Under the pieces are notes generated by a model that worked only from the letters and a program-made list of their open reading frames with translations, made no database searches and was not told the DNA's origin. From the IMG/VR virus record IMGVR_UViG_3300045996_001623, positions 1 to 55,770 of that record: DNA of 55,770 nt; one strand, written 5' to 3'. This DNA comes from a virus (Duplodnaviria > Caudoviricetes). A program made the translations under genes and the position numbers. Every line of letters begins with the position of its first letter. Positions within the stretch are counted from its first letter, which is position 1. Shown piece by piece: positions 399-55,271 of the stretch.

Positions 399-494
399 CC
401 CCTGCTCAGAGCGACTGGGCAGAGCCCCGTACCTCGTGCCAGACCCACAGACGGTTCATCCACCGAGCACGAGAGTCGAAAGGGGCCATGCCGC

Positions 495-2519
495 ATGGAC
501 CAGTTCGCAGACCGGCTCGCCCGCATTGGGGACCTGAGCCCGGACGAAGTGGCGCAACTCGAAGCCGAGTTGGTCGCAGCGTTCGATCAGGCCGACAGTG
601 CAGGTGACGTCGACCTGATGCAGCAACTCGCCGAAGCGCTCGACAACGTCCGCGCCGCCAAGACAGCGACGCCCCCGGCTGCAACGCCGGAGGCCGCGCC
701 AGTCGCCGCCGCCGCTGAGACGCCCGTCGAGGACAAGCCGAGCGATCCGACCCCCGACGGCCAGCAGGCGCCCCCAGCGCCGCAGCCGGAGGTTTCCCCC
801 GAGCAGGCGCAGGCGCCAGTGCCGGAGCCGGACGGCACGCCCGTCCCGACCGAGCAGCCGCCCGCCGAGCCGGGACCGGGAGAGCCGAACGCCAACGTCG
901 TCCCCGAGCAGCCTGCCGAGCAGGTGCCCACCGCCGAGACCCAGCCGGTTGCCGTCGTCGTCGACGGCGATCCGACCCCGGTCATCGTCGAGGGCGAGCC
1001 CGTGGCCGAGGGCCAGCAGACGGCCGAGACCAACACACCAACCGAGGAAGGCGTTCAAAGCGCTCCCGACCAGCAGCAGGAGGAAGCCGTGGCAACCGAT
1101 GTGGTCACGCAGGAAGATGTTCCGGCGGCGAACAAGCCGGTCCCCGTGACCGCAAGCGCCGCGCCGTTCACCATCACGGCCGGGGGTGACATCCCCGGGT
1201 TCACGTCGGGCCAGAAGCTCGGCGACATGGACGAGGTCATCGACGCCCTGACGAAGAAGATCAACTCGATGCGGGGCGTCGGCGGCGACGGCGAGTACGT
1301 CGTCGTGGCGTCGCTTCGCCGGGACGACGACATGGTCCCCGAAGAGAAGATGCTTCGCAAGGGCGACCCCGAGGGCAACTCGGTGAAGATCCGGGAGTTC
1401 ATGCGGGCGAACGAGTCGATGGACTCCCTCGTCGCCGCCGGTTGGTGCGCCCCCCGCACCCCGCTGTACGACATCCCGGGCATCGGCACGTCGGACACCC
1501 CCGTCGCCGACAGCCTCCCGTCGTTCGGCGTGGACCGCGGTGGCATCATCTGGACGGAGCCGCCGTCCCTCGCCGGGGTCATCTCGTCGATGGGCTCGAA
1601 CGCCTTCGTGCGGTGGGTCCCGACGAACTCGGCGGGCACGATCTCGGTGACCGGCGTGTTCGGCAACACGGCGACGTCGCCGGTCGACACGAAGCCGTGC
1701 ATCGACATCGCCTGCGGTGTGGAGCGGTCCGCCGACCTCATCGCCATCCCGATGTGCCTCTGCTTCGACCTCCTGTCCAGCCGGACGAACCCGGAGTTCG
1801 TGAAGGCCGCGACCGACCTCGTCGGCGTCGCCCAGGCGCACTTCAAGGAGCAGTACCTGCTCGCCCAGATGTTCAGCGCCCCCGGCGTGTCGAACCTCGC
1901 CGGGACGATCGGTGACAGCGACATCCAGGTCGGCGTGGCCCGCGACTTCCTCGTCCAGGTCCGCCTGGTGGCGTCGCAGTTCCGCTGGCGGAACCGTCTG
2001 TCCCCGACGCAGCAGCTTCGGCTGTACGCCCCGGCGTGGCTCCGGGACGCGATCGCGGCGGACCTCACGCTGCAGGCGCCGGGCGAGAACACCATCTCGA
2101 CGTCGTACGCCGAGGTCGACGGCTACCTCGACGACCTCAACGTCGACGTGGTCTGGTACATCGACGACGTCCCGACGATGGCCGCGGGCACGCTCCCGGC
2201 CGGTCCGCAGGGCGCGACGACGGCGGCCAGCAACTTCGACAGCTACCTGGGCTTCGGCGCCACGGCGGAGTGGCTCCTGACCACGCCCGGCGTGTTCACC
2301 CGCCTCGATGGTGGCCAGGTCGACCTGGGTGTCGTGCGGACGAAGGAGGACGTCCAGAAGAACCGCTTCTGCGAGTTCTCCGAGACGTTCGAGACCGTCG
2401 CCTACATGGGCCCGCAGACGGCCGCCAATGCGTGGGCCGTCCGTGGCTCCACGCCGGTCAACGTCATCGGCGGCTACGCCCTGGGCGTCAACACGGCGGC
2501 TGGGGTCGTCGTCGAGTGA
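495..2519 (+). CDS. Major capsid (hexamer) protein with long acidic/Pro-rich N-terminal scaffold-like region
   Basis: Motif LVAAGWCAP..PLYD and C-terminal LDGGQVDLGVVRT..N..F.ETFE typical of cluster-B-like actinophage capsids. Confidence 0.9.
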   Translation: MDQFADRLARIGDLSPDEVAQLEAELVAAFDQADSAGDVDLMQQLAEALDNVRAAKTATPPAATPEAAPVAAAAETPVEDKPSDPTPDGQQAPPAPQPEVSPEQAQAPVPEPDGTPVPTEQPPAEPGPGEPNANVVPEQPAEQVPTAETQPVAVVVDGDPTPVIVEGEPVAEGQQTAETNTPTEEGVQSAPDQQQEEAVATDVVTQEDVPAANKPVPVTASAAPFTITAGGDIPGFTSGQKLGDMDEVIDALTKKINSMRGVGGDGEYVVVASLRRDDDMVPEEKMLRKGDPEGNSVKIREFMRANESMDSLVAAGWCAPRTPLYDIPGIGTSDTPVADSLPSFGVDRGGIIWTEPPSLAGVISSMGSNAFVRWVPTNSAGTISVTGVFGNTATSPVDTKPCIDIACGVERSADLIAIPMCLCFDLLSSRTNPEFVKAATDLVGVAQAHFKEQYLLAQMFSAPGVSNLAGTIGDSDIQVGVARDFLVQVRLVASQFRWRNRLSPTQQLRLYAPAWLRDAIAADLTLQAPGENTISTSYAEVDGYLDDLNVDVVWYIDDVPTMAAGTLPAGPQGATTAASNFDSYLGFGATAEWLLTTPGVFTRLDGGQVDLGVVRTKEDVQKNRFCEFSETFETVAYMGPQTAANAWAVRGSTPVNVIGGYALGVNTAAGVVVE

Positions 2520-2528
2520 TCTGACGAT

Positions 2529-2554
2529 GCCGGGCCACCTGCGGGTGGCCCGGC
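2529..2554 (+). terminator. GC hairpin after capsid gene
   Basis: GCCGGGCCACC-TGCG-GGTGGCCCGGC, 11-bp stem, no U tract. Confidence 0.6.
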
Positions 2555-2595
2555 CCGTTGGGTCTCATTAGGTACGAGCGACAGGAAGGACCGCG

Positions 2596-3573
2596 ATGGC
2601 AACCCGAGACGGTGCAGCCAGCATCCAGGGCGACATGATCCGTGTCACGCCCCTCAACCTCGATGGCACGATCGACACTTCGCGTCCGGTCCTGACGACC
2701 AACGGTTTCATCACCGCGTCGTTCGGCACCGAGTTCGAGGATGGCGACGAGATCACCGAGAAGGCCGCCGACGGCACGGTGTGCATCCAGTACAAGGCTG
2801 ACGACTCCCTCAAGGGCATCACGTTCAGCCTCTCGCTGTGCACCCCGGACCCGGAGTCGGCGGCCCTGATCGCAGGTGGCAAGATCATCTGCGCCGCCGC
2901 CGATGTGGTCGACGACGACGACAACGTGATCGTCAACGCCGGTGACGTCATCGGCTACTCGTCTCCGTCCGTCGGCGCCACGGTGGGCAACCCCGTGGCG
3001 ATCGAGGTCTGGTCGAAGGCGATCGTGAAGGGCAAGCCCGCCGGTGGCACCCCGTACTGGCACTGGGTGTTCCCGTACGTCCGTGTCCGCTACGACGGCG
3101 ACCGCGAGTTCTCGAACGGCGCGCTGTCGAACGAGTACTCGGGCACGGGGGTCGGCAACGACGCCCTGGCCGCGGCCGGGCTCGGCGGGGTCGGCGCCGA
3201 CTTCGTCACCTACAAGGGCGCTCTCGTCAACCCGTTCAGCTACGTCCGGTCGACCGCCAAGCCCGACATCTCGGGTGGTCACTGGTCCGGTGGTTCGGGC
3301 GGCCTGGGCGTGTTCGACAAGACGGCCGACAACTCGATCGGCTGCATCCCGCCGCTCGCGACGTCGGCGACGTCGGGCATCCCCGGCACGTGGAGCCCCG
3401 GCGGGTCGACGCTTCCGGCGTCGGTCGCTGCTCTGCAGTCGGCTTCGCCCGCCATCACGGCGTCGCCCACCACGGCGTGGACGACCGGTCAGTACGTCCA
3501 GACGGCCACGGCCGGAACGGGCGGACGGGCTTACTGGAACGGGACGGCGTGGGTCGCCGGTACCGCTCCCTGA
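2596..3573 (+). CDS. Major tail (tube) protein with C-terminal accessory domain
   Basis: IRVT.L..G..GFI..E.EDGDEI..K.ADG..C motif; C-terminal ASPTTAWTTGQYV..YWNGTAWVAG; SD AGGAAGG. Confidence 0.8.
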   Translation: MATRDGAASIQGDMIRVTPLNLDGTIDTSRPVLTTNGFITASFGTEFEDGDEITEKAADGTVCIQYKADDSLKGITFSLSLCTPDPESAALIAGGKIICAAADVVDDDDNVIVNAGDVIGYSSPSVGATVGNPVAIEVWSKAIVKGKPAGGTPYWHWVFPYVRVRYDGDREFSNGALSNEYSGTGVGNDALAAAGLGGVGADFVTYKGALVNPFSYVRSTAKPDISGGHWSGGSGGLGVFDKTADNSIGCIPPLATSATSGIPGTWSPGGSTLPASVAALQSASPAITASPTTAWTTGQYVQTATAGTGGRAYWNGTAWVAGTAP

Positions 3574-3598
3574 TCTCCTGACGGGGGAGAGCCACGTA

Positions 3599-3641
3599 CG
3601 GCCCTCCGACTCCTGCCGCAAGCACAGGGGTCGGGGGGCCG
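3599..3641 (+). terminator. Long GC hairpin after tail tube gene
   Basis: CGGCCCTCCGACTCCTG / CAGGGGTCGGGGGGCCG with G-U pairs. Confidence 0.65.
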
Positions 3642-3667
3642 TTGCGCGTCACCGCAGCTAGTACCTG

Positions 3668-3696
3668 TTGCGCTGACCCATATCGTGGTATACACT
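3668..3696 (+). promoter_or_regulatory. SigA-like promoter, leaderless start at 3703
   Basis: TTGCGC-17-TACACT then GTG after 6 nt. Confidence 0.65.
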
Positions 3697-3702
3697 CACG
3701 GC

Positions 3703-3918
3703 GTGACCCAGACCATGACGACCCCACGTGGCACCGTGATCCACCAGCACGACCACCCGACCCGACTGCAGGCTGCCGTGTGCCGCCGCCGTGGAGTCTT
3801 CACGACCGTCCTGCTCGACGCGTCCGCCCCGAACTACGAGGCTGCGCGGCAGGAGGCGATGGAGAAGTTCCCCGGTGTGCCGTTCACGGTCCCGCGTCTC
3901 GGTGAGGTCGTCTCGTGA
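3703..3918 (+). CDS. Hypothetical protein (MTQTMTTPRG...)
   Basis: Leaderless GTG; GTGA overlap with next gene. Confidence 0.65.
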   Translation: MTQTMTTPRGTVIHQHDHPTRLQAAVCRRRGVFTTVLLDASAPNYEAARQEAMEKFPGVPFTVPRLGEVVS

Positions 3919-4331: not shown

Positions 4332-4339
4332 TAGTCGGC

Positions 4340-4378
4340 TATACTCACGGTGTGGGTGTCACACCCACCTGCCACAAT
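4340..4378 (+). promoter_or_regulatory. Tandem -10 boxes (TATACT 4340, TGC-CACAAT 4370-4378) flanking palindrome GTGGGTGT-C-ACACCCAC
   Basis: Read directly; upstream of AAA gene. Confidence 0.55.
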
Positions 4379-4413
4379 CGACCAGACCCAGACCTGACCG
4401 GGAGATCCACCCA

Positions 4414-6264: not shown

Positions 6265-6273
6265 TGCTATACT
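6265..6273 (+). promoter_or_regulatory. Extended -10 TGCTATACT, leaderless start 6280
   Basis: GTG after a 6-nt spacer. Confidence 0.7.
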
Positions 6274-6279
6274 GCTGTC

Positions 6280-8352
6280 GTGGACTCAGACCCAGACATC
6301 GACCAGGACGTCGCTGACGCCGTCGCAGAAGTCATCGCGACGATGCGCGCCATGCTCGTCCTGCCACCACATCTCACGAGCACGAACACCCATCTCGTCA
6401 AGCGGACCGCCGACCTCAACGTCGACAGCGCATCGAACCCGCTGGTCCGCATCTCGCGGAGCGGGCCGGGGGTACGCACCCATCTGACCGCACCGGTCGC
6501 CCACTACGTCGATAACGACGACATCCGGGTGCCGCCCGCCCCCGCCTGGTATCTGCCAGGGACGAACGACCTCTACATCCACGTCGACGCGGCCGGACTC
6601 ACCGGCAGCATCCCGGCGGTCGACGTGACCCGCCCGTGGAACGTCAAGGGGAAGGAAGCGGCGACGATCCTCGGTCTGCTGTGCCATGAGGCCGGGCACG
6701 CTGCGATCTCCGGCGACATGATCGAGGTCCAGAAGGAAGCGCCGCACCACGCCGACCTGCTCACCCTCATCGAAGAGATCCGGGTCGAGAACCAGGCCCT
6801 GCGCGCCTACCCGGAAGGCCGGGCGGGTCTGCGGGCGTCCATGGCAATCGTGTTGAAGAACCTGCCCGACGAGTTCGAGACGAAGGGCCACGTCGTCCGA
6901 GCGTGGACGATCTGCCACGGCCGCACCCTCGCCGGGATCTCCGACGAAGCCGAAACCAGCCAGATCGACGTCGCCGCCCGCACCCTGCTCACCGACGACG
7001 TCGTCGACGCCCTGACAGACCTGCTGCAGGAAGCGATCACGTTGAAGCTGAACTACGAGATCCACCGCAACCGCCTCATCAAGATCTGCGACGAGTGGAC
7101 GGAACTCGTCGGTGAGCCCGCCGAGACGACCGGTTGCGCGACGTGCGCACGGGAAGCGCAGCCCGGCGAGAAGACCGACAACGTCGGTGGTGGCGGCAAG
7201 TCCGACGAGGAAGGCGACGACGACGAAGCCGGTGACGGCGGCGGGGCCGACGGCGACGGTGAGGACGGTGAGCCCACCACGGCCGGAGAGAAGAACGGCG
7301 CCCACGATCACAGCGAGCCCGACCGGACCGACGCGGGCACGTGGGGCACCCCCGGCCAGGACAGCCTCATCGGCGACAACGAGGACATCGACTACCCCAA
7401 CAGGCTCACCGACGAGGACGCCGAACTCATGTCGATGCTCACCCGCAACCTGTCCGACCTGATGCAGGACGAATGGATGCGGGAACGGGACCACACGATC
7501 GAACTGGCCAACTCGCGGGAGTGGGCAGCGAAGATCTTCGGGAACACGACGACGTCCCGGATGCTGTCCCTCTACGACCCGAAGCCGGTCACCCGCCAGT
7601 CCGTTGTCCGTGTCGCAGGGGCCCTGTCGGCGCTGATGCTCCCGGCGATCTCGAAGACGGCGAAGGCCATGGTGATCCCGCCCGGCAAGCTGCGAGGCCG
7701 TGAAGCGGTCCGCCAGTCCGCCGAACGGGCCCAGGGTCGGATGACGACGGCGAAGCCGTGGGCCGGAACGGTCCGCCGCCACTCGTCGGCCCGTCCGCTC
7801 ATCGTCGGTGTCGCCACCGACACGTCCGGGTCGATGGGCTGGGCACAGTTGGCCGTCGCCGAGTTCGCGTTCGTGTTCGCCAACGCCGGGCATCGTGTCG
7901 GTGCCCGGACCGCTGCGGTCACGTTCGGTGATCGGGTCGTGCGGATCGCGCGGCCCGGCGAAGTGATGGCCCAGGTCGCCGAGAAGCCCGCCCATGACGG
8001 CTCAGAAGAGTTCGACAAGGCCATGGCCGCACTCGACGGGGTCCTGCACCTGACGGAGCCCAGCTACTCGGCTCGCATCCTGTTCATCGTCTCCGACGGG
8101 GCGTTCGTCATCGAAGGCGAGTCCGATCGGGCTGCTGAGTGGGTGCGGCGCATGGACAAGGTCGGGACGCACATCGTGTGGGTCACCGACGTCGGCGGTC
8201 CGCACTGGCTGGCCGGGATGAAGCTGGACCGGGTGTCGGTCCGGACGCTCGGCAAGCGGGGTCGGGAAGTCGCTCGGGTGCACGGCGAACGGCACGTGTA
8301 CTCGATGATGGAGGAAGAGGCCCTGCTGGCCATCGCTCACGACATCCGCTGA
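6280..8352 (+). CDS. Zincin-like metallopeptidase / acidic linker / vWA protein (CobT-like partner of MoxR ATPase)
   Basis: HEAGH plus EEIRVE, D/E/G-rich linker, MIDAS DTSGSM, VSDG. Confidence 0.88.
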   Translation: MDSDPDIDQDVADAVAEVIATMRAMLVLPPHLTSTNTHLVKRTADLNVDSASNPLVRISRSGPGVRTHLTAPVAHYVDNDDIRVPPAPAWYLPGTNDLYIHVDAAGLTGSIPAVDVTRPWNVKGKEAATILGLLCHEAGHAAISGDMIEVQKEAPHHADLLTLIEEIRVENQALRAYPEGRAGLRASMAIVLKNLPDEFETKGHVVRAWTICHGRTLAGISDEAETSQIDVAARTLLTDDVVDALTDLLQEAITLKLNYEIHRNRLIKICDEWTELVGEPAETTGCATCAREAQPGEKTDNVGGGGKSDEEGDDDEAGDGGGADGDGEDGEPTTAGEKNGAHDHSEPDRTDAGTWGTPGQDSLIGDNEDIDYPNRLTDEDAELMSMLTRNLSDLMQDEWMRERDHTIELANSREWAAKIFGNTTTSRMLSLYDPKPVTRQSVVRVAGALSALMLPAISKTAKAMVIPPGKLRGREAVRQSAERAQGRMTTAKPWAGTVRRHSSARPLIVGVATDTSGSMGWAQLAVAEFAFVFANAGHRVGARTAAVTFGDRVVRIARPGEVMAQVAEKPAHDGSEEFDKAMAALDGVLHLTEPSYSARILFIVSDGAFVIEGESDRAAEWVRRMDKVGTHIVWVTDVGGPHWLAGMKLDRVSVRTLGKRGREVARVHGERHVYSMMEEEALLAIAHDIR

Positions 8353-13192: not shown

Positions 13193-13211
13193 GTACACGG
13201 TGCTATACTGC
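13193..13211 (+). promoter_or_regulatory. Conserved promoter GTACACGGTGCTATACTGC (identical at 45478-45496), leaderless start 13217
   Basis: 19-bp exact repeat containing extended -10. Confidence 0.8.
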
Positions 13212-13216
13212 AAGTC

Positions 13217-14368
13217 GTGACCGAGACCCAGATCCTCTGCAACGAGTGCGGCGACACCGGCTTCGTGCCCCCGTTCATGGACCGGTGCTCCTGCAAGCAC
13301 AAGCCCGGGGTGCCGTCCGGCGACTCCATCGCCACCATCACCGGCGACATCGAGGTCGGCCCGCCCGTCTACACCGGCACGTCGGCCGCTGTCGCATGGG
13401 TCGACTACGACCACAAGTCGAAGTCGTGGAAGACGGTCCCCGCCCCGGCGAACGCCGACGAGATCCTGGCCGACGCCAAGGCTCGCCACGATGGCCCCCG
13501 CCCGCTCGTCGGGTCGACCGCCATCGCCGCGGCCGTCGCCGCCGCCCCGAAGAAGAAGATCGGCGCCAAGCCCGGCGAGAAGGTCATCAGCGCCGCCCAG
13601 GTGAACCTGCTGGACAGCTTGGTCGCAGAGCGCGATGCCGCCCACCCGGTCGTGGCTGAGTACCTGCAGGAACTCAGCGATCACACCGACGCCGGAGCGA
13701 TGATGTCCGCCAAGAACGCGTCGCAGTGGATCACGAAGATCATGGCGGTCGGCAAGGACGCCACGAAGCCCGCCGCCGAGAAGTCGAACAAGTACGACGG
13801 GTCCTGCAAGGACTGCGGCGGCCCGGTCCCGGCCGGAGCGGGCGTCATCCGTCAGGTCGTCCCCGGCGGCAAGTGGACGACGTTCCACAAGCCCGGCAAC
13901 TGCCTCAACGCTCTCGAAGCCGCCGCCCTGATGGCTGACAAGGTCACCGAGCCCGGCCTGTACCGGTTCGTCACGAGCCTCGCCACCGAGGTCTACCGGG
14001 TCCGCTGGAACCAGTCGAAGACCCGCCTCTATGGCGAACTCGTCGTCCCGCACGCCGCTGACGACACTGACGGCGAGGAAGGCCACGGTCACGTCGAGTT
14101 CCTCTACAACGGCAAGGCCTTGTCGTTCCTGCGGGCCTCCGACAAGCTGACCTGGCAGGAAGCCCGCGAGTTCGGCGCCCTGTACGGCACCTGCGTCGCC
14201 TGCGGTCGCAGCCTCGAAGACCCCCGCTCGGTCGTCCAGGGGTACGGCCCGAAGTGCGCCGACAACAACGGTTGGCCCACCGTCACCGCCAAGCAGGCCA
14301 AGGCCATCATCGCCGAAGAGACCACCTGGGAGGCCGTGATCAGCGACCTGGGGGTCCTGACCCCGTAA
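13217..14368 (+). CDS. Multi-zinc-finger protein with C-terminal DUF6011-like domain
   Basis: CNECG, CKDCG, CVACGRSLEDPRSV..GYGPKC. Confidence 0.75.
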   Translation: MTETQILCNECGDTGFVPPFMDRCSCKHKPGVPSGDSIATITGDIEVGPPVYTGTSAAVAWVDYDHKSKSWKTVPAPANADEILADAKARHDGPRPLVGSTAIAAAVAAAPKKKIGAKPGEKVISAAQVNLLDSLVAERDAAHPVVAEYLQELSDHTDAGAMMSAKNASQWITKIMAVGKDATKPAAEKSNKYDGSCKDCGGPVPAGAGVIRQVVPGGKWTTFHKPGNCLNALEAAALMADKVTEPGLYRFVTSLATEVYRVRWNQSKTRLYGELVVPHAADDTDGEEGHGHVEFLYNGKALSFLRASDKLTWQEAREFGALYGTCVACGRSLEDPRSVVQGYGPKCADNNGWPTVTAKQAKAIIAEETTWEAVISDLGVLTP

Positions 14369-21428: not shown

Positions 21429-21743
21429 GTGGACCTAGACCAGCCCGTAGACCCGGACGTAGACGCAGACAGCCAGAGCACGTTGCTCGGCGTCGTACAG
21501 CCCCCAGAGCCGACCGTTCCGTCGTACGACGAAGCGATCCGCACCGCCCTGGCCACCGTGCAAGCGGACCTCGTGCGGCTCCGGGCTCAACGCCGGGACG
21601 ATGATCGGGAAGGCTTGGCGGAGATCGCTCGCATGAAGCGCGACCTCATCGCCCGCCGCAAGGCGACGAACAGCGACATCGCTGAACTCGTCGCCGAGCA
21701 GAAGCGCATCGCTGCGCTCGTCCGCGTGCTCGACAAGCAGTAG
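21429..21743 (+). CDS. Hypothetical coiled-coil protein
   Basis: Leaderless GTG, heptad-like helix. Confidence 0.65.
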   Translation: MDLDQPVDPDVDADSQSTLLGVVQPPEPTVPSYDEAIRTALATVQADLVRLRAQRRDDDREGLAEIARMKRDLIARRKATNSDIAELVAEQKRIAALVRVLDKQ

Positions 21744-21790
21744 CGACTACGATCCCGGGCACCAGACCCGGAGAAAGACGAAGACTCAAC

Positions 21791-32026: not shown

Positions 32027-32073
32027 CCCTGCTCACCGCCTACAATGGCGGGTAAGACCCAGACGGAAGGAAC

Positions 32074-33365: not shown

Positions 33366-34048
33366 AACGGCTCTTCATCTCCTGGTGGCGGGGTCTGCTG
33401 CTCGATCTCAGTGAGCAGGACGTTCAGGTAGCCCTCGACCTCGTCCAGCCACTCCGCGTCCTCGAACAGGGCCTTGCCGGACAGCTTCTTCCCGGCCGAC
33501 GTCGCCCATGCCTTCGTCTCGGCCTTGTATCGCTCCGAGAGGCCCCCGAGCGTGGTCAGGACGGCGTCGATGCGGTCGGGGCGGGTATCGCGCGGTGCGG
33601 GCCGCTCTGGGGCTGCTGGGGGCGCCTTGGCGGCTGCGTGGCCGTCGTCGTCTTCGGTGGCCAGGTTGCAGATCGACAGGATCGAGTAGCGGCGCGCGTA
33701 GCTGATAGCCGACCCGACGTTCTGCGGGGTGCCACCGGCGGGCTTGATGTAGAGCGGCGGGAACCGGAGCCACTCGCCGGACTCGTGGAAGAAGGTGGTG
33801 GAGACGCCGACCTCGGTGGCGGTCTGCGACATGACGAGACCGTGGTCGGCCAGCTTCGGGCGGACCTCGTCGAGGACCTGGCTGAGGGTGGCGTACTTGT
33901 AGCGCATCGGTCCGGCTTCGACCTTGGCGTCGAACGTGATGTCCTTCATCGTCTTCAACGCCTTCACGAAGGCGCTGATCACTTCGACGCTGCCGCTGCT
34001 GGTGGTCCAGGTGAACGGGTCGACGGTGGTCGGTTCTGGGTCTGGCAT
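33362..34048 (-). CDS. erf: ERF-family ssDNA annealing protein
   Basis: YKYATL..V...L..HGL, Q..GSAISYARRYS...EDDDG; leaderless ATG 34048. Confidence 0.9.
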   Translation of the reverse strand: MPDPEPTTVDPFTWTTSSGSVEVISAFVKALKTMKDITFDAKVEAGPMRYKYATLSQVLDEVRPKLADHGLVMSQTATEVGVSTTFFHESGEWLRFPPLYIKPAGGTPQNVGSAISYARRYSILSICNLATEDDDGHAAAKAPPAAPERPAPRDTRPDRIDAVLTTLGGLSERYKAETKAWATSAGKKLSGKALFEDAEWLDEVEGYLNVLLTEIEQQTPPPGDEEPF

Positions 34049-34054
34049 GCCGTC

Positions 34055-34118
34055 AGTATAGGGCGCTATCCGTTCTTCGGGCAAGGGGTTGACGACCTGC
34101 CGTATGGTCCGTTATAGT
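34055..34118. promoter_or_regulatory. Back-to-back SigA promoters, both leaderless
   Basis: Minus TTGCCC-18-TATACT to ATG 34048; plus TTGACG-18-TATAGT to ATG 34126. Confidence 0.75.
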
Positions 34119-34125
34119 GATCCCC

Positions 34126-34464
34126 ATGACACAGACAGAGACGCCCGCACCGGGCACGCTCGCCACCTACGGCATCGGCTCCGACCGATACGCCATGGTC
34201 GTCGTCGCCACTGAGCGCAACGGCCGCACCCTCCTGGTCGACTGGCTCTCCAACGTCGAGGACTCCTGCGGCGACGGTCCGTGGACCGCAGAGCAGATCG
34301 CCGACCACGTCGCCCAGCGCCGGGCCGCCGAGCGCGGCGCCCGGTTCGGTGAGGCGTTCAAGCGGTTCACCCGTCGCACCCACGGCGTCTACATCCTGCA
34401 GGGCCAGACGTACGGCAGCCTCCGCCTTGGCGTGGCCGACGACTACCGAGACCCGGGCTTCTGA
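34126..34464 (+). CDS. Hypothetical phage protein
   Basis: GSDRYA..LG...YRDP.F; leaderless. Confidence 0.75.
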   Translation: MTQTETPAPGTLATYGIGSDRYAMVVVATERNGRTLLVDWLSNVEDSCGDGPWTAEQIADHVAQRRAAERGARFGEAFKRFTRRTHGVYILQGQTYGSLRLGVADDYRDPGF

Positions 34465-35897: not shown

Positions 35898-36131
35898 TCA
35901 CCCCTTGCGGGCTTCGTCGACCCGCTGAGAGATCACTGACAGGCACTCCGGCGTGTCGGCGTACCAGGTGCGGATCGAGCGCTGCAGGAACTCCGGCAGG
36001 TCCTCGAACGGCATGCCGACCAGGAGGTCGAGAGCGTCGTCGCCGTACTGCTCGGTGCGCTCGTACTCGGTGCGGATGTCGCCCGGGTCGGTGCTGGTGT
36101 GGATCGAGCGGATCGGACCGGTCTGTGTCAT
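35898..36131 (-). CDS. Hypothetical protein (MTQTG...)
   Basis: Leaderless after TTGACT-16-TATACT (36166-36139). Confidence 0.7.
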   Translation of the reverse strand: MTQTGPIRSIHTSTDPGDIRTEYERTEQYGDDALDLLVGMPFEDLPEFLQRSIRTWYADTPECLSVISQRVDEARKG

Positions 36132-36154
36132 GACCCGCAGTATAGCGGTCTATG

Positions 36155-40533: not shown

Positions 40534-41285
40534 GTCGTTGGTCCTGTCTGGGTCTCGCGCAGCAGTCGCCGCGCCCGGTCCATGATGTCATTCGATTCGC
40601 GTTGCGCAACAGGCGGCGGGTTCGCCTCCCATCGGCTCCGGTTGAGCCACGTCGTCGGGTGGGGCACCTTGTCCGGCTCGTTCTTCGCCGTCCAGTAGTC
40701 CAGCCACTTCTGCAGCCCGCCCTCGGCGGCAGCCTTGTCGGCGTCGGTGAGCCGCTCGAACGCTCGGGATGCCTGGGCCTTGTCGATCGCTCTCGGGTAC
40801 TGCTTCCACCACGCCTCGAACCGTGGCGTGTACTCCTGCGCCTTCCCCCGCTTGCGGGGGCTAGGGGGACTCTCGTTGTTCTTGCTCTCTCTGTCTTGCT
40901 CTCTCTCGTGGGTCACCGGTGAACCGGGGGGTGGGTCACCGGTGACCTGGGGGGCCCCCTCACAGATGACCCCCGGGTCACGGGTGAACCGGGGGTCAAA
41001 TGGGGCGTCGCCTGCCAAGTGGTAGAGGTTCGGAAGCTGCGATCCGTCGTCGCCGCGACGCTGCTCAACGCGGAGCGCACCGACCTCGACGAGCCGTTCG
41101 ACGCAGCGCTTCGCTGTCGGCCTGGACTTGCCGATGCGGTCGGCGATGGTGCCGAGTGAGGGGCGGATCTCGTTGCCGTAGCGGGCGAGGACACCGAAGG
41201 TGCGGACGTCGTCACCGGTCAGGTCTGGGTGGTACAGGACCCACTCCGGGATCGCTGCGAACTTGTAGCCGAGTGAGACGGTCAT
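40530..41285 (-). CDS. Replication initiator (N-terminal wHTH, lambda-O/replisome-organiser-like)
   Basis: PS..TIA..IG.SR.T.KR...L...G; C-terminal FE.WW..YPR..DK..A..PHPTTWLN..RWE. Confidence 0.85.
   Translation of the reverse strand: MTVSLGYKFAAIPEWVLYHPDLTGDDVRTFGVLARYGNEIRPSLGTIADRIGKSRPTAKRCVERLVEVGALRVEQRRGDDGSQLPNLYHLAGDAPFDPRFTRDPGVICEGAPQVTGDPPPGSPVTHEREQDRESKNNESPPSPRKRGKAQEYTPRFEAWWKQYPRAIDKAQASRAFERLTDADKAAAEGGLQKWLDYWTAKNEPDKVPHPTTWLNRSRWEANPPPVAQRESNDIMDRARRLLRETQTGPTT
40910..40990. repeat. Iteron-like repeats GGGTCACCGGTGA(A)CC inside initiator gene (putative ori)
   Basis: Copies at 40910, 40933, 40975 and a degenerate copy at 40958; adjacent pyrimidine tract 40870-40907. Confidence 0.7.
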
Positions 41286-41463: not shown

Positions 41464-41514
41464 CATTCCGTCACACGAATGTCATGGACAACGGGAAGTA
41501 CAACACGTTATAGT
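41462..41514 (+). promoter_or_regulatory. Dyad GACATTC-N8-GAATGTC and rightward promoter TGGACA-18-TATAGT (leaderless 41522)
   Basis: Read directly; dyad lies between divergent -35 boxes. Confidence 0.6.
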
Positions 41515-41521
41515 TCAGGTC

Positions 41522-41698
41522 GTGAGCAAGACCCAGAAGCCCGTCCCCACCAAGCGGGGCACCCACGGCCGCGTCGGCATGACGCTGGCACAAGTCGCCG
41601 CCGAGCACATCGCAGAAGCCGCACTCACCCGCAACGAAGATGGCGACATCATCGACGCCAACGGCAAGAACTGGGGCAAGACGGGGGCGGGCAAGTGA
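41522..41698 (+). CDS. Hypothetical protein
   Basis: Leaderless GTG. Confidence 0.6.
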   Translation: MSKTQKPVPTKRGTHGRVGMTLAQVAAEHIAEAALTRNEDGDIIDANGKNWGKTGAGK

Positions 41699-42279: not shown

Positions 42280-42304
42280 CGACGACCGCATAGCCCGATA
42301 TACT
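42276..42304 (+). promoter_or_regulatory. SigA promoter followed by CAGAC-rich leader
   Basis: TTGACG-17-TATACT. Confidence 0.75.
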
Positions 42305-42339
42305 CCACTCGACCAGACACAGACCGACAGGACCAGACC

Positions 42340-45477: not shown

Positions 45478-45496
45478 GTACACGGTGCTATACTGC
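45478..45496 (+). promoter_or_regulatory. Second copy of GTACACGGTGCTATACTGC, leaderless start 45502
   Basis: Exact repeat of 13193-13211. Confidence 0.8.
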
Positions 45497-45501
45497 CTGT
45501 C

Positions 45502-45771
45502 ATGACCAAGACCTACACGCTCACCCTGATGGACGACTCCGGCGAGATCCTGAACGTCGTTCAGTCGCCCGTCCTGCCCCGCTTCGCCCACGTCATCCAC
45601 CACAGCCCCGAAGCGGGCACGCTCGTCATGTCCGACGAGCCGGAGGTCGAAGTGCCGGACGCCACGGCGATCGTCGTCACGTTCGCCCGGATCGCGTCCG
45701 CTGTCCATGTCGCTGCGGATGAGGGGGTGCAGGAAGAGCGGTCGGCGTTGTTCGTCCGTGTCCGTGCGTGA
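45502..45771 (+). CDS. Hypothetical protein
   Basis: Leaderless ATG. Confidence 0.7.
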   Translation: MTKTYTLTLMDDSGEILNVVQSPVLPRFAHVIHHSPEAGTLVMSDEPEVEVPDATAIVVTFARIASAVHVAADEGVQEERSALFVRVRA

Positions 45772-45777: not shown

Positions 45778-45805
45778 TTGACATTCCCGTACACATCGCT
45801 ATACT
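45778..45805 (+). promoter_or_regulatory. SigA promoter, leaderless start 45813
   Basis: TTGACA-16-TATACT with GTACAC in spacer. Confidence 0.75.
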
Positions 45806-45812
45806 CACGAAC

Positions 45813-46433
45813 ATGATCCAGACCGAGACGTTCCAGCCCCCCAAGCGCCGCCGCGGGCGCGCCTTCTCCCTCAGCCTGTTCCTCGCCGCAGGCGGCGGGC
45901 TCATGCAGCAGTGCGCCCCCATGCCCACCGCCGCCCCCGCCACGTACGCCACCGTCGTCGTCGGTGACAGCATCACCGCCGACGCCAAGGACGAACTCGC
46001 CACCCAGAAGGACATCTACGTCGATGGCATCTGGGGCCGTGGGATCGACTCCAACGCCGGTGGCCACACCTTCCCCACGCTCCGCACCGCCGTCGCCGCA
46101 GCCGCCAAGAAGGTCAAGCCGCAGGGCTGGCTCGTCATCCAGGACGACGGCGGCGAAGGGGTCACCACCCCCGAGTTCGTCAAGTACGTCACCGACCTGC
46201 TCCCCGACGACCGCTGCCTGGCCTGGGTGTCCCCGTCGAACGACACGACCGGCGCCGCCTGGCTGGCCGACTCGCAGGCCGCCGTCACCGCTGGCCTGCT
46301 CGACCAGCCGTGCAACGCCTACATCGACTGGTACACGGTGTCGCACGAGCAGGGCGTCCTCCACGACGGTCTGCACGCCAACCAGGACGGCCAGTGGCTC
46401 TACAACCACCTGATCTGGACGACCGTCCGATGA
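45813..46433 (+). CDS. Secreted SGNH/GDSL-family esterase
   Basis: RRRGR plus hydrophobic signal; VGDSIT, IDW, DGLH.N..G. Confidence 0.8.
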   Translation: MIQTETFQPPKRRRGRAFSLSLFLAAGGGLMQQCAPMPTAAPATYATVVVGDSITADAKDELATQKDIYVDGIWGRGIDSNAGGHTFPTLRTAVAAAAKKVKPQGWLVIQDDGGEGVTTPEFVKYVTDLLPDDRCLAWVSPSNDTTGAAWLADSQAAVTAGLLDQPCNAYIDWYTVSHEQGVLHDGLHANQDGQWLYNHLIWTTVR

Positions 46434-48730: not shown

Positions 48731-48996
48731 TCTGCCCGGCCTGCTCCGGCCACGTCGACGAAGCCCTCACCCCGTCCGGGCGCATCCCGCCGCAGGACTG
48801 GGACCCCGTCGTGTGCTTCCACTGCGGCGCCCTCGCCGTCATCGACCACGTCGTTCCCGGCCACCTACGCAACCCGTCGACGAACGACATCGACGCATGG
48901 CAGAGTGATAGCCGTCTGGCGCGCCTGCTCGACCTGCAGCAAGCCGCCATGCGGCGGACCAACACCGAGACCCAAGATGGAGACCAGACCACATGA
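48727..48996 (+). CDS. Zinc-finger protein
   Basis: CPAC..CFHC. Confidence 0.65.
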   Translation: MICPACSGHVDEALTPSGRIPPQDWDPVVCFHCGALAVIDHVVPGHLRNPSTNDIDAWQSDSRLARLLDLQQAAMRRTNTETQDGDQTT

Positions 48997-50360: not shown

Positions 50361-50641
50361 GGGTTCTCGAACCCTGCCGCTTCGGCTTCGGCGCCCTTCT
50401 GCGCGGCGTGGTTGCCGAGGGTCAGAGCGATGATCGACAGGATGACGGTCTCCAACGACGTCACCTTCACGAACAACTCGAAGTCGAGCAGGAAGTACGC
50501 GGCGACGTTCGGCGGGGTGAGCAGGATGAGCCACATCCACTTCGCCAGGCGGTTCCGTCCAGCGGAACGCCGGGCCGCTGCGGCTTTCATGTCGCGTTCG
50601 TCTTCGCTCACCGCAGCGACCGTACCCGGAACATCCATCAA
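50357..50641 (-). CDS. Small membrane protein
   Basis: Two hydrophobic segments; convergent stop shares CTAG. Confidence 0.55.
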   Translation of the reverse strand: MMDVPGTVAAVSEDERDMKAAAARRSAGRNRLAKWMWLILLTPPNVAAYFLLDFELFVKVTSLETVILSIIALTLGNHAAQKGAEAEAAGFENP

Positions 50642-50673
50642 ACATAGGTTTCATAGGCAGCTATAATCGGGCT

Positions 50674-51060
50674 ATGCCAGACCCGAGACCCGCCCCCGAG
50701 ATGGTGTACCCCGACGACGAAGCCCTCCGCGTGGAGGCGCTCGCGATCCGCACGGCGCACGACCCGGAACACCAGAAGGACAACGGCTACGAACGCTGCG
50801 CCCTCTGCCACTTCACCCGGCACCCGTGCGACGCGTTCGACATGGCCGACCAAGTCCTCACCCTGCTCAACCGCATCGCTGCCCCGGCCGTAGACCCGGT
50901 GCAGATCGCGCGAGCGCTTGCCGTGAAGGCCACGAATGCCGCCGATGTCACCGTCGACGACCTGATCCTCACCCTCGTCGCCGACGTGCTGCTGATCTCG
51001 TCCGGCGCCATGCCGATCGACGCTTACGAACAGGGGACCGCCAGTGCCGAACCATCCTGA
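50674..51060 (+). CDS. Hypothetical protein
   Basis: Leaderless after TATAAT 50662; H..CALC..HPC. Confidence 0.7.
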   Translation: MPDPRPAPEMVYPDDEALRVEALAIRTAHDPEHQKDNGYERCALCHFTRHPCDAFDMADQVLTLLNRIAAPAVDPVQIARALAVKATNAADVTVDDLILTLVADVLLISSGAMPIDAYEQGTASAEPS

Positions 51061-51864: not shown

Positions 51865-51917
51865 TGCCAGGCTAGGAGGGTCCGACAACCCCCCAAGCCT
51901 GCAGGAGCCACCGCCCG

Positions 51918-53366
51918 ATGATGTCCCGATTTCGCCGTGTCCTGATGGTCGGCGCCATGGTCTGCGTAGCCGCAGCCTGCACGCCTCCGGCCGCCGCACA
52001 CGACTCCGGCACCACCGACTACCAGGTCACCGCCGCCGACGTCGCCGGTTCGTCGACCTCCGCTGACTGGGTGCTGATCGCCCGAGCGATCGTCGCCCGC
52101 GACCACGACGGCGCCACCCTCACCACCGCCGAGGCCAACGACTTCGCCGCCTACCTGCAGCGCGCCAACCGGATCTCCGCTCCGCAGGTCGACACCCTGG
52201 TCGACTACCGGCCGAACCGGGTCCCCGCCGGAACCCCGCCGACGACCACGACGCTGCCCGCCACGACGACCACAGGAGCGCCGACATCTACAAGCACGAC
52301 TACGACGACCACGGTTGCGGCCACCACCACTGTGTCCGCGACGACGACCACGGTCCCTGCTGCCACCACTACGACGGCTGCCCCCACGACAACGGCCCCG
52401 GCGACGACCACGACGATCCCGGCTCCGCCCACGTCGACGATCCCGACGTCCAGCGGTGACTTCATCGAGGACTTCGCTTCGCCCGCATCGGTCGACCGGT
52501 TCGTGTGGGAGCAGTCCCACGGCGGCGTAGACCCGTTCCCCCGCACCGACCAGCCCCGCGAGTGGCAAGCCGACCATGACACGATGTGCGGCGCCCCTCC
52601 CACCCTGCGCACCGTCCACCTGCACGGCTCCGGCGGCTACTCCGGGCCCGGCCCGATCGCTACGGCGACCGGCGACAACGCGTTCTGGTGCGCCCCCGGC
52701 GCCGAGGCAGCGAAGGGGCACGTGATGACGTCGACGGTCCTCACCGCGTACGGCCACATCGACTTCTCCCCGGCGCGCAGCTTCACGAACGTCCGCCAGA
52801 TCTGCTGGGACATGAACCGCTCCGACCTGGGTGGCCGCAAGTGGTGGCAGGTGTCGATCATCCCCGAGGCCGCCTTCCAGGCCAACGGCGGCCATCTCGA
52901 CTACGTCCGCCCGAACCTCGAAGGTGACGGCAACGTCGCCGGAGGCTCCCACGTCCTGCCGCTGAACGCGTTCCAACTGTCCACGTTCCGCACCGAGAAC
53001 GTCTTCTCGCGTGGCGACGGAGTCAAGGCATCCGCCGGGTCCGAAGGCGCCGATCTGTCCTGGGCTGGCGGTGAGGCGTTCTGGAAGCCTGCGAGCGACC
53101 GCGCGAACCGGTACCGGCACTGCCTGACCGAGTCCGCCGCCGGTGTCACGTTGACGATGGTCGACCATCGCGGCACCGCTGACCCGTCCGACGATGACCC
53201 GTGGACGCAGAACATGGGCACCAACTTCCACATCCCGCAGGGCGCGGTGCGGGTCATCTTCCAGGACGTCACCTACGACTCGATCAAGGGTGACTTCGAG
53301 CGGGGCGGCGCGCCGCTGAACACGAACACCTGGCACGTCGACAACATCCTCATCGACGTCGCCTGA
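51918..53366 (+). CDS. Probable lipoprotein with Thr-rich linker and C-terminal beta-rich domain
   Basis: Basic N-terminus, hydrophobic core, VAAA-C lipobox, poly-Thr tract. Confidence 0.75.
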   Translation: MMSRFRRVLMVGAMVCVAAACTPPAAAHDSGTTDYQVTAADVAGSSTSADWVLIARAIVARDHDGATLTTAEANDFAAYLQRANRISAPQVDTLVDYRPNRVPAGTPPTTTTLPATTTTGAPTSTSTTTTTTVAATTTVSATTTTVPAATTTTAAPTTTAPATTTTIPAPPTSTIPTSSGDFIEDFASPASVDRFVWEQSHGGVDPFPRTDQPREWQADHDTMCGAPPTLRTVHLHGSGGYSGPGPIATATGDNAFWCAPGAEAAKGHVMTSTVLTAYGHIDFSPARSFTNVRQICWDMNRSDLGGRKWWQVSIIPEAAFQANGGHLDYVRPNLEGDGNVAGGSHVLPLNAFQLSTFRTENVFSRGDGVKASAGSEGADLSWAGGEAFWKPASDRANRYRHCLTESAAGVTLTMVDHRGTADPSDDDPWTQNMGTNFHIPQGAVRVIFQDVTYDSIKGDFERGGAPLNTNTWHVDNILIDVA

Positions 53367-53782: not shown

Positions 53783-53978
53783 CTCGGCCGACGACCCTGA
53801 GTGGTCGTCGGCCGAGGCGCTTTCCGAAGCGGCCGTGAACCTGATCGACTTCATGTCGTACGTCTGGGAGGAACAGACCGACGCCCTGCAGAAGCACCCT
53901 CTGGTCAGGGTGTTCCGCATCGCCGAGTCGGTCACGCTGTGCATCCTGAGCCGGGTGGAGCGCCTGCTGCCTCACTGA
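53766..53978 (+). CDS. Hypothetical protein
   Basis: Codon bias. Confidence 0.55.
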   Translation: MTEPPDSADDPEWSSAEALSEAAVNLIDFMSYVWEEQTDALQKHPLVRVFRIAESVTLCILSRVERLLPH

Positions 53979-54030
53979 ATCAGGGGACAAGGGATGGTAT
54001 TTCGGGGCGGGGTCCGCGCATCATGACCGC

Positions 54031-54318
54031 GTGCCGACTGATCCGGTCAGTCTGGCGCTGCTGGCCGCGGGCATCCTGTCGGCTGTGTGGGCGCTGCTAC
54101 ACGGCGCGGGTTCACCGCGGAACGACCCGCCGTGCACCGAGATGACGGCCGCCGATCACGAGCAATGCGCCGCCGATCTGCTCGAACAAGCCCGCCGTGA
54201 ATGGGGCACGAAGGTGCCGACGATGCTCGCCCAGCGCGCCCAGGCACATGCCCAGCTTGCAGCTTCGTTACGAATCGCCGATCAGACGGCTCATAACGAG
54301 ACAACCACCTGCTCGTAA
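54031..54318 (+). CDS. Hypothetical membrane-anchored protein
   Basis: N-terminal TM; AQAHAQLA motif. Confidence 0.55.
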   Translation: MPTDPVSLALLAAGILSAVWALLHGAGSPRNDPPCTEMTAADHEQCAADLLEQARREWGTKVPTMLAQRAQAHAQLAASLRIADQTAHNETTTCS

Positions 54319-54335
54319 CCGTTACAGTACGCGGC

Positions 54336-55271
54336 GTGAATCACATGACCCAGACCAAGACTTGGCTGACCCGCATCATCGCGGGCACCGCCCTCGCCGC
54401 CGCCACCGTCACGGTGACAGCGGGAGTCGTCTCCGCCCACGACCTCGCCGCTGACTGCGACGGCGTCACCGTCAACTACAGCCCGCTCACCGGCCCCGGC
54501 GGTTCGCCCGTCATCGCCGACACCGGGTTCACGTCCTGGGAGGACCTGGGGACCACCACGGTCACCGGCTACCAGAACAACGGCACCGAAGGCCCGAAGA
54601 CGGCGTCCCGACCGCCCGCCTGCGAGTCGCCCGGCAAGGTGACGATCTGCCACTATCCGCCCGGCAACCCCGACAACCCGCAGACCATCGAGATCGCCGA
54701 GTCCGCCTGGGAGGCCCACCAGGCCAAGCACGCCCGCGATGGCGGCCACGACACCGAGGGGCCCTGCCCGCAGGTGACGACGACTACGACCACGGAGCCG
54801 GAAGGCGACGACGGCACAACGACGACCACGGTGGCCGACACGACGACCACGGTGGCTGACACGACCACGACTGCTCCGGCCGACACCACGACGACCGTCG
54901 TCGACGGCACGACTACGACCGTTGCGGATGCGACGACCACGACCACCGAGGCCGCAGCGACCACCACGACCGTCGCCCCGACCGACACCGTCCCCGAGCC
55001 GCCCACCGCGGCGCCGCCCACTGGCGCCACGGTCACCGTCTACGTCTGCGCTGACTTCCGAGGGAACTGGGAACTCGCCGCCGAGTGGGTCGTCTTCTAC
55101 CAGTCGGTAGGCCGCCCGGATCTCGCCGCCGCCCTCGACGGCTGCGACAACCGCACGGTCGGTGGCAGCCTGCCCTCGACAGGCGGGTACGCCACCGGCT
55201 GGACCTCGCTGATCGCCCTCGTAGCGCTCATCGCTGGCAGCGTCCTGCTCGTCGTCCGCCGCCGTGCGTAG
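54336..55271 (+). CDS. LPXTG sortase-type cell-wall-anchored protein
   Basis: Signal peptide (VSA-H), KVTICH.PPGNP.N..TI..A..AH domain, Thr-rich stalk, LPSTG + TM + RRR. Confidence 0.85.
   Translation: MNHMTQTKTWLTRIIAGTALAAATVTVTAGVVSAHDLAADCDGVTVNYSPLTGPGGSPVIADTGFTSWEDLGTTTVTGYQNNGTEGPKTASRPPACESPGKVTICHYPPGNPDNPQTIEIAESAWEAHQAKHARDGGHDTEGPCPQVTTTTTTEPEGDDGTTTTTVADTTTTVADTTTTAPADTTTTVVDGTTTTVADATTTTTEAAATTTTVAPTDTVPEPPTAAPPTGATVTVYVCADFRGNWELAAEWVVFYQSVGRPDLAAALDGCDNRTVGGSLPSTGGYATGWTSLIALVALIAGSVLLVVRRRA

Follow-up and report, generated by a model that had tools for sequence, protein, structure and literature searches.

Tandem AGAC repeats at the predicted 5′ ends of transcripts form a lineage-wide element in an uncultured soil phage

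The window analysed here is an entire IMG/VR virus record (IMGVR_UViG_3300045996_001623; Duplodnaviria, Caudoviricetes), a linear sequence of 55,770 bp with a CheckV completeness estimate of 72%. It was found that AGAC, often as tandem copies 6 nt apart, recurs shortly after the promoter-like hexamers of this phage, and that these repeats are a genuine cis-element, under selection and shared across the lineage, at the 5′ ends predicted for phage transcripts. Explanations by chance, by codon pairs, or by an encoded peptide are excluded. A previous sequence-only reading had listed the motif in leaders and in first codons and had called it a candidate phage "self-mRNA" tag; all of the motif coordinates that it listed hold, and the signal is stronger than was first stated. 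I infer that the element acts at the level of RNA, that its role is in translation, and that some component reads the invariant AGAC. By analogy with CA and ACA enhancers, and still tentatively, the AGAC repeats may be an unpaired, G-poor 5′ RNA platform which promotes ribosome loading.

The tandem motif AGACNNAGAC occurs at 12 sites in the window, compared with a mean of 1.6 and a largest value of 5 in 100 dinucleotide shuffles. The 12 sites include those at 4384, 6288, 32055, 34133, 40546 (minus strand), 42315, 45820, and 54352. The claim that the motif is always on the sense strand is true of 11 of the 12 exact sites, while the one at 55038-55047 is antisense to the local gene. CAGAC as a whole is under-represented in the window (112 versus 155 expected); its sites include 440-444, 448-452, 4383-4393, 5644, 21763, 32060, 40546-40550 (minus strand), 41357, 42314, 42320, 42334, 44659, and 48985. 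The -10-like hexamer TA[TC]ANT exists only 15 times on both strands, 14 times between called genes. Sense-strand AGAC lies wholly within the 24 nt downstream of 12 of these 15 hexamers (about 1 of 15 expected by chance; per-site chance 0.07; P = 4e-12). Concerning the exceptions, the hexamer at 4340 has AGACCCAGAC 38 nt downstream, behind a hairpin, the first AGAC comes 23 nt beyond the hexamer at 54323, past GTG 54336, and the hexamer at 32579 is inside a gene. Among all 4-mers in the 30 nt after the hexamers, AGAC is the most enriched (20 versus 1.24 expected from gene bodies, P = 6e-18), and ACAC and CACA were found there 5 times each versus about 1 expected.

A second signal lies after the start codons. 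Genes were called with my own caller based on GC content at third codon positions (GC3) and codon scores, which gave 82 genes in the window. In 9 of the 82 genes, the distance from the first base of the start codon to the beginning of AGAC is exactly 7 nt, versus about 0.6 genes expected at the same-phase gene-body rate (Poisson P = 2e-8). Genes with no -10-like hexamer within 80 nt have no AGAC excess at +4 to +33 (9 versus 5.5 in the window; 15 versus 9.6 in a related contig, G001, described below). It is thus the promoter-proximal, apparently leaderless genes that account for the excess after start codons. The N-termini MTQT, MIQTET, MTETQ, MSKTQ, MPDP, and MDSDPD, which had been read from the first codons of such genes, were confirmed.

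Could the repeats be a by-product without function, resulting from GAG, AAG, or CAG codons followed by ACC, from an MT(Q/E/K)T N-terminus, or from duplication of a promoter cassette? Most gene-body AGACs share a single codon phase (132 of 175), and MT- N-termini are common in high-GC Gram-positive bacteria. However, gene bodies (from codon 11 on) match the expectation of synonymous-codon shuffles, with 152 AGAC versus 148 and two AGACNNAGAC versus 1.6 in the window, and 235 versus 261 and five versus 4.3 in G001. Since the gene bodies match the shuffle counts, the signal is not explained by codon pairs, and the caveat of the sequence-only reading on this point falls away. In addition, the motif occurs in 5′ untranslated regions (5′UTRs) and in two reading frames, and the repeats have been kept across switches between coding and non-coding sequence and at orthologous promoters despite proteins that are only 32-77% identical. 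A lack of function is therefore highly improbable. The complement GTCT seemed to be avoided in gene bodies (93 versus 134 in the window; 134 versus 245 in G001), but among all 4-mers its rank is only 30th (of 222) and 15th (of 241), respectively, and it was rejected as a signal. AGAC itself is not avoided in gene bodies.

Selection at the nucleotide level, which had been proposed from the use of two frames and of 5′UTRs, is further supported by the coding/non-coding switch of the Erf gene described below and by the choice of Thr codons. At codons 2-6 of 25 leaderless candidates (n = 47), ACC is used 23 times, ACA 16 times, ACG four times, and ACT four times, while the genome-wide shares are 55%, 6%, 37%, and 2%, respectively (P = 4e-9 for ACA and 8e-6 for ACG). 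This skew is an avoidance of G and a preference for A at the silent position. Four DNA sequencing runs covering 32001-52000 showed 15 substitutions, none of them in a repeat; as only about 0.1 would be expected there, this absence is uninformative.

Is the element confined to one phage genome? Relatives were found in viral, metagenome, and genome collections with two kinds of scan, one for the pattern and one anchored on proteins. G001 is a viral contig of 96.6 kb (65.6% GC, 85% complete) which is syntenic with the window and has protein matches to 33 window proteins at 32-72% identity. In G001, AGAC is present within 24 nt after 14 of 25 TA[TC]ANT hexamers and is again the top 4-mer (28 versus 1.85, P = 1e-23), and all 18 exact AGACNNAGAC sites are on the sense strand of my own gene calls. 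TATACT-type sites followed by 2-5 AGAC units were also found in the small contigs L123, L124, L125, L121, and L009 and in contigs C81, C287, and C443 (L134-L136) of G005, a metagenome-assembled genome (MAG) labelled Thermomicrobiales (8.1 Mb, no 16S match). The capsid, tail, ATPase, tape measure, Erf, and replication proteins on these G005 contigs are 28-63% identical to those of the window. These three contigs are, over their whole length, pieces of a phage of the same lineage, and they may be mis-binned phage DNA or point to the host; as an indication of the host, co-binning is only a hint.

At orthologous promoters, the repeats are kept while their surroundings have changed, and the bases between the -10 hexamer and the motif differ. 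The promoter of the Erf recombinase gene (33362-34048, minus strand) is a clear case. In the window, this gene is leaderless and the repeat is translated, with ATG-CCA-GAC-CCA-GAA encoding MPDPE (ATGCCAGACCCAGAA). In G001, the same nucleotides lie in the 5′UTR; the promoter-proximal GTG frame stops after nine codons, and the Erf gene starts at a downstream ATG behind GAAAGCAGG. Similarly, the gene at 6280 is apparently leaderless in the window, while its counterparts in G001, L123, and L135 are leadered. The number of units also differs among orthologues, from 2 to 5; in the 5′UTR of the ATPase gene, the window has 2 units, G001 and L123 have 4 each, and L125 has 5.

Outside this lineage, the picture is different. 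In five cultured phages that are distantly related, AGACNNAGAC showed no excess over a reversed-pattern control (motif/control: Forza 12/10, GMA2 15/9, Mimi 6/15, DSL-LC01 11/10, and A3Wally 12/12). Matches to TATANT-N6-8-RTG were then scored for AGAC four bases after the start codon. Such matches carry AGAC in 6 of 10 cases in the window and 8 of 10 in G001, compared with 1 of 10 and 1 of 14 in the Solirubrobacterales genomes G004 and G006. The G005 MAG has 3 of 61, all three on the phage contigs and none of about 56 on the other contigs. Both Solirubrobacterales genomes were picked up by a scan for the same pattern, and the candidate hosts are guesses. In 400 kb of G006, AGAC is within 24 nt of none of 11 intergenic -10-like hexamers (enrichment 0 versus 0.7), and in 223 kb from 20 contigs of G005, of none of 16 (1 versus 1.0). 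Thus, the positional enrichment that had been suggested as a check is present in the phage and absent from the two candidate-host samples.

The anatomy of the element was deduced from a pool of 38 promoter-like sites in six sequences of four phages (the window, G001, three G005 contigs, and L125). The repeat unit is (C/A)C-AGAC-(C/A)C, in 2-5 copies. Successive AGACs are spaced by 6 nt in 24 of 39 pairs; at least two units are present within 14 nt in 23 of the 38 sites, and at least three units in seven. The distance from the -10 hexamer to AGAC peaks at 7-8, 14-15, and 20-21 nt. In 20 of 38 sites, the first AGAC comes 14-15 nt after the -10 hexamer in the leaderless arrangement TATACT-N7-ATGACC-NAGAC, and in six it comes at 7-8 nt, which is the predicted start, in the leadered arrangement TATACT-N6/7-AGACCCAGAC-GAAAGG...ATG. 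The ATGACC of the leaderless arrangement, a start codon and a Thr codon, looks like a first, degenerate unit.

A scan for two hexamers (-35 and -10, 16-18 bp apart) found eight sigma-70-like sites in 32000-51999, compared with 1.2 in shuffles, and seven of the eight have arrays. One near-consensus promoter, TTGACA-16-TATACT, has 11 of 12 matches. The eighth site (41463-41435, minus strand) precedes the replication-initiator gene by about 150 nt, and the stretch from it to ATG 41285 is free of AGAC. The same scan of 1-20000 found no site. The four TATACT-type sites there are less certain promoters since they have no good -35. The claim that the motif lies just downstream of transcription starts therefore stands as far as promoter-like hexamers are concerned; the starts themselves are predicted, and two-hexamer support is seen in 32000-51999 and not in 1-20000. 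The presence of good -35 sequences in the right arm and their absence from the structural left arm suggest two putative promoter classes with common downstream repeats. A conserved ATA(C)/TACAC block (1.2-1.9 bits) was also found 7-9 nt upstream of TATACT-type -10 hexamers, for example at 6256-6262, 13192-13198, and 45477-45483, and in G001 as well. Block and hexamer together resemble ATAC-N5/6-TATACT, and the block may serve as an extended promoter element or bind a factor.

Several array-bearing sites of the window are of the leaderless type. On the plus strand, 3691..3713 has a -10-like TACACT (3691-3696), GTG 3703, and AGAC at 3710-3713 (VTQT); 13204..13227 has TATACT, GTG 13217, and AGAC at 13224-13227 (VTETQ); 34113..34142 has TTGACG-18-TATAGT, ATG 34126, and AGACAGAGAC at 34133-34142 (MTQTET); 41509..41532 has TGGACA-18-TATAGT, GTG 41522, and AGAC at 41529-41532 (VSKTQ); 45489..45512 has TGGACA-18-TATACT, ATG 45502, and AGAC at 45509-45512 (MTKT); and 45800..45829 has TTGACA-16-TATACT, ATG 45813, and AGACCGAGAC at 45820-45829 (MIQTET). 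On the minus strand are the Erf site at 34040..34060, with TATACT 34060-34055, ATG 34048, and AGAC 34043-34040, and a site at 36121..36144 with TTGACT-16-TATACT, ATG 36131, and AGAC 36124-36121 (MTQT). Two plus-strand sites use the other frame; at 6268..6297, TATACT and GTG 6280 are followed by AGACCCAGAC at 6288-6297, read as GAC-CCA-GAC, and at 50662..50689, TATAAT and ATG 50674 are followed by AGAC at 50679 and 50686 in an MPDPRP frame. At 54323..54361 (plus strand), TACAGT precedes GTG 54336 and ATG 54345, with AGACCAAGAC at 54352-54361.

Three further promoter-like sites are leadered, all on the plus strand. At 32041..32064, TACAAT is followed by AGACCCAGAC (32055-32064) in the 5′UTR and then by GGAAGGA and ATG 32074. 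At 42299..42338, TTGACG-17-TATACT is followed by a 5′UTR with AGACACAGAC at 42315-42324 and AGAC at 42335-42338, just before ATG 42340. At 4340..4393, the 5′UTR of the AAA ATPase gene (4414-5370; ATG 4414), TATACT (4340-4345) is followed by a hairpin/palindrome (4349-4369), CACAAT, and AGACCCAGAC at 4384-4393. This strong hairpin or DNA palindrome, of the type GGTG.GGGTG...CACCCACC, recurs in L124, L135, L136, and L009, and CACAAT after it, a candidate second -10, is conserved in L136. No strict -10 hexamer accompanies the two AGAC clusters of 21461..21785 (21461-21470; 21764 and 21776-21785), which lie upstream of the genes at 21483 and 21791. In the leader of the major capsid gene (495-2519; ATG 495), GTACCTC is followed 5 nt on by AGACCCACAGAC (429..452). 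In capsid leaders, GTACYTC followed by AGAC after 5-16 nt was found in the window (429-452), at 39666 in G001, in L134, and at 2911 in L009, with no TATACT-type hexamer nearby; it may represent a different promoter class or a processing site. As a distinct late-promoter motif, GTACCTC was rejected because it is too common in coding sequence. AGAC is also found in or beside the loop of two GC-rich hairpins after gene ends (32590-32625 and, on the minus strand, 38480-38530; cccggAGACcgggg), probably by coincidence.

How might such repeats work? In the proposed mechanism, host sigma-A-type promoters (gcTATACT, some with TTGACN) would transcribe the tract as the first 10-30 nt of the message. The tract, G-poor, C/A-rich, and presumably unpaired, with 2-5 units mostly 6 nt apart, would aid translation initiation of the first cistron. 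In leaderless messages (5′-AUGACC-NAGACC-NAGAC), it would lie directly downstream of the 5′-terminal start codon, and in leadered messages it would lie at the extreme 5′ end, directly upstream of a GAAAGG or GGAGG Shine-Dalgarno (SD) sequence. In both types of message, it may be used as a ribosome loading or standby platform, comparable to CA-repeat and ACA enhancers.

Several observations argue for this ribosome-loading platform. Relative to start codons, array positions range from -54 to +16, on either side, and a same-strand start is near in 13 of 16 cases in the window and 16 of 17 in G001. For five arrays, the 70 nt upstream contain no TANNNT; all five are beside SD-like purine runs, 12-39 nt ahead of a start codon within an operon. 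Two are in the window: AGACCCAGAC at 40546..40555 (minus strand) is in the 3′ end of the replication-initiator gene (40530-41285, minus strand), 22 nt before the next ATG, and AGACCAGAC at 48981..48989 (plus strand) is within the upstream gene, 12 nt before ATG 48993. The other three are at 9465, 86341 (minus strand), and 33825 (minus strand) of G001. Exact AGACNNAGAC sites occur inside upstream genes three times versus about 0.38 expected (P = 0.007), and genes without a promoter-like hexamer have an AGAC excess at -40 to -1 (23 versus 7.6 in the window, 31 versus 13.2 in G001). Arrays are sometimes located behind a 5′ hairpin, yet still ahead of the SD sequence. Averaged over their first 25 nt, 38 predicted transcripts show a predicted unpaired probability of 0.68, compared with 0.42 for 206 intragenic windows (P = 2e-15), and AGAC positions have 0.72 versus 0.52 elsewhere in the same 90-nt transcripts. 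The variable unit number fits as well, as the effect of CA repeats is likewise length-dependent. A ribosome-loading platform is thus favoured because of the promoter-less arrays, the upstream enrichment, the post-hairpin arrays, the unpaired ends, the silent positions, and the precedent. Of the three roles that had been put forward, namely a factor-binding site, a translation enhancer, and an initially transcribed signal, the evidence leans to an RNA-level role related to translation.

Some points weigh against a ribosome-loading platform. For gene-body AGAC, the predicted unpaired probability is nearly as high (0.63, n = 31, P = 0.2), and the structural result is partly compositional for this reason. 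The AGAC unit with its invariant G is specific beyond CA-richness, and a compositional enhancer would not need the G. Most arrays are locked to the -10 hexamer, and a transcription-level element would look alike. The transcription starts are predictions from promoter-like hexamers, and the gene starts come from a home-made caller. The promoter-proximal regions of the candidate hosts, which are guessed, have no such motif, and this is unexpected if the host ribosome prefers AGAC. Finally, no useful complementarity to 16S rRNA was found in the two Solirubrobacterales genomes, which have ordinary 16S 3′ ends; GTCT occurs only internally in their 16S genes, at 296 in one and at 296, 1026, and 1296 in the other.

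The repeats could instead be tandem operators on double-stranded DNA, bound by a phage regulator, for example a ribbon-helix-helix (RHH) or helix-turn-helix (HTH) protein, at +1 to +20 of nearly all strong promoters. The regulator would switch the promoters off (or on) together, as a roadblock in the manner of stoperators. The fixed 6-bp spacing of the direct repeats with a variable copy number, their position directly after the -10-like hexamers and at nearly all two-hexamer sites of the right arm, and their orientation with transcription are all consistent with an operator. The window also encodes an Arc-like RHH protein (36155-36400, minus strand) and a MerR-like HTH protein (36387-36680, minus strand), the latter kept in G001. 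However, the five operon-internal arrays are not preceded by any promoter-like hexamer, the RHH protein has no tblastn match in G001 (E < 1e-5), and no integrase or recognisable immunity repressor was found by PHROGs and Pfam in the window, a record that is 72% complete. The preference for A/C and avoidance of G at silent positions suit unpaired RNA better than protein-DNA contact. The motif-free promoter-like site upstream of the replication-initiator gene would fit the regulator's own promoter, but this is a single case. Taken together, I regard the operator as rather unlikely. The array position has also been considered as a cause in itself. Repeats in the initially transcribed sequence might set the start site or speed escape from strong promoters; in leadered promoters the array begins at the predicted start, and in the leaderless type it is shifted downstream by one hexamer, the promoter sequences approach the consensus, and the array at 4384 may follow the second -10-like CACAAT conserved in L136. 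On the other hand, some arrays are 16-46 nt downstream of the -10 hexamer or are preceded by a 5′ hairpin (L125, L135, and L009), others have no promoter-like hexamer at all, and no mechanism is known to me by which a 6-nt repeat would be read during promoter escape. Such an effect is doubtful, and it has a lower probability than an operator.

All of the RNA-level evidence for the platform applies equally to an RNA tag, in which a phage-encoded or hijacked host RNA-binding protein would stabilise, antiterminate, or selectively translate phage messages. The top rank of AGAC among all 4-mers in two genomes agrees with such a tag. So does its restriction to one phage lineage (the window, G001, the G005 phage contigs, L123-L125, L121, and L009) with no excess in the five cultured phages, as well as the scarcity in bacterial genomes of TATANT-N6-8-RTG-N4-AGAC, which is frequent in the window and G001. 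Against it, no candidate RNA-binding protein was found. PHROGs and Pfam searches of 82 and 65 of the 82 window proteins, respectively, and of 95 of the 146 G001 proteins revealed no sigma factor, RNA polymerase, or RNA-binding domain; PDB sequence searches with four conserved proteins of unknown function and an Atlas search with the product of 42340-43107 gave no match. Some phage transcription units are without the tag, the absence from host messages is based on guessed hosts (the Solirubrobacterales ones found via the same pattern), and nut- and put-type sites are structured, while the AGAC repeats are predicted not to be. I consider this kind of tag improbable to about the same degree as an operator. 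It corresponds to the "self-mRNA" idea of the sequence-only reading. A bolder version goes a step further; tandem AGAC hexamers would be read by a phage factor or by a phage-modified ribosome or RNA polymerase, and phage transcripts of both the leaderless and the leadered type would be favoured in translation, stability, or elongation during host shutdown, as a sequence-specific self tag on the mRNA of a prokaryotic virus. This remains consistent with the lack of promoter-proximal motifs in the two samples of guessed hosts, but the promoter-like site at 41463-41435 is a phage site without the motif. The bolder version seems unlikely, slightly more so than an RNA tag in general.

Among known systems, the closest functional analogues, judging by likeness, are the CA/ACA enhancers and standby sites. 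According to PMC3879156 and PMC5934652, ACA and CA-rich tracts enhance translation without strict positioning, and CA tails act as ribosome standby sites (PMC5934652). These elements, studied in enterobacteria and phage MS2 models, are short C/A-rich unstructured tracts near the start, located upstream of the SD sequence or downstream of a leaderless start, with an effect that rises with repeat number. The AGAC tract is likewise C/A-rich and predicted to be single-stranded. Unlike the CA/ACA enhancers, it has a specific unit with an invariant G and a 6-nt period and is tied to the promoters of one uncultured high-GC lineage.

The closest genomic analogue is the start-associated sequence (SAS), with its extended form (ESAS), of the Cluster K mycobacteriophages. 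As described in PMC3203893, SAS is a 13-bp sequence, GGGATAGGAGCCC, which contains the SD sequence, lies 3-7 bp before the start codon of non-structural genes only, and is rare in host genomes; its function is unsettled there, and a role in translation initiation was proposed. SAS and the AGAC repeats are alike in being short, asymmetric, lineage-private repeats in one orientation beside the starts of unrelated genes. However, the AGAC repeats have no SD sequence, are found either at the 5′ end of the transcript or following a leaderless start codon, and are also present in the structural module. Thus, the AGAC motif is not a member of the SAS family because its sequence and placement differ.

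The stoperators of Cluster A phages, the sites of the L5 repressor, are present in many asymmetric copies, oriented with transcription, near gene boundaries. The AGAC sites resemble them in their sense orientation (11 of 12 in the window, 18 of 18 in G001). In contrast, stoperators are single 13-bp sites of the immunity repressor of a temperate phage, and AGAC is a tandem 6-nt repeat. As for a cognate protein, PHROGs and Pfam found no integrase or CI-like repressor in the window (72% complete), and G001 (85%) has one small HTH_3 protein. In PMC3203893, stoperators are described as 13-bp transcription-regulating sites. An analogy with nut and boxA sites had also been drawn, but it finds no support, as the AGAC repeats are predicted to be unstructured. 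The nut sites of lambda N and the put sites of HK022 are RNA sites transcribed just downstream of phage promoters; they form stem-loops and serve two promoters per genome. The AGAC repeats differ in their predicted unpaired state and in their presence after at least a dozen promoters. In the main texts searched, no description of the AGAC element was found, and of 234 papers that contain the literal 10-mer, the 10 listed deal with unrelated topics.

The GC content is 66-70% along the window and 68% overall, and a tRNA-Glu(CTC) at 110-182 is the only Rfam match. No close cultured phage was found by megablast of 1-20000, and the best protein matches in cultured phages, at 31-37% identity, are between the capsid and portal proteins and their counterparts in large Arthrobacter, Microbacterium, and Gordonia phages. 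The sequencing runs that contain 32001-42000 are DNA runs labelled soil metagenome, with no RNA run among them. Like the gene assignments above, those of the major tail protein (2596-3573), large terminase (10212-11705), portal (19663-21303), and tape measure protein (22441-26202) are from PHROGs and Pfam. The gene order in 495-21303 is unusual, with the capsid and major tail genes upstream of those for the AAA ATPase, large terminase, and portal, and promoter-like sites are dispersed through this structural module. At its C-terminus, the protein encoded at 54345-55271 has an LPXTG motif for cell-wall anchoring (Pfam Gram_pos_anchor, E = 1e-4), which would imply a sortase-bearing Gram-positive host; a peptidase-like gene follows and runs off the window end. 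G001 has a region without a counterpart in the window, where ORFs of 1320 aa (12425-16387) and 2267 aa (21423-28226) have no Pfam match and an 836-aa protein (17445-19955) has a Zeta_toxin-like kinase domain.

If the proposed role is true, the AGAC repeats would amount to a short, portable element, 10-20 nt in length, which raises the expression of both leaderless and leadered messages in high-GC bacteria, in which leaderless translation is frequent and poorly understood. If a dedicated factor reads the repeats, they would represent a new route by which a phage coordinates or privileges its whole transcriptome. Either way, they provide an easy sequence signature for the promoters and first cistrons of an uncultured lineage of soil phages and, like the SAS of Cluster K, show that phage lineages evolve private start-associated signals.

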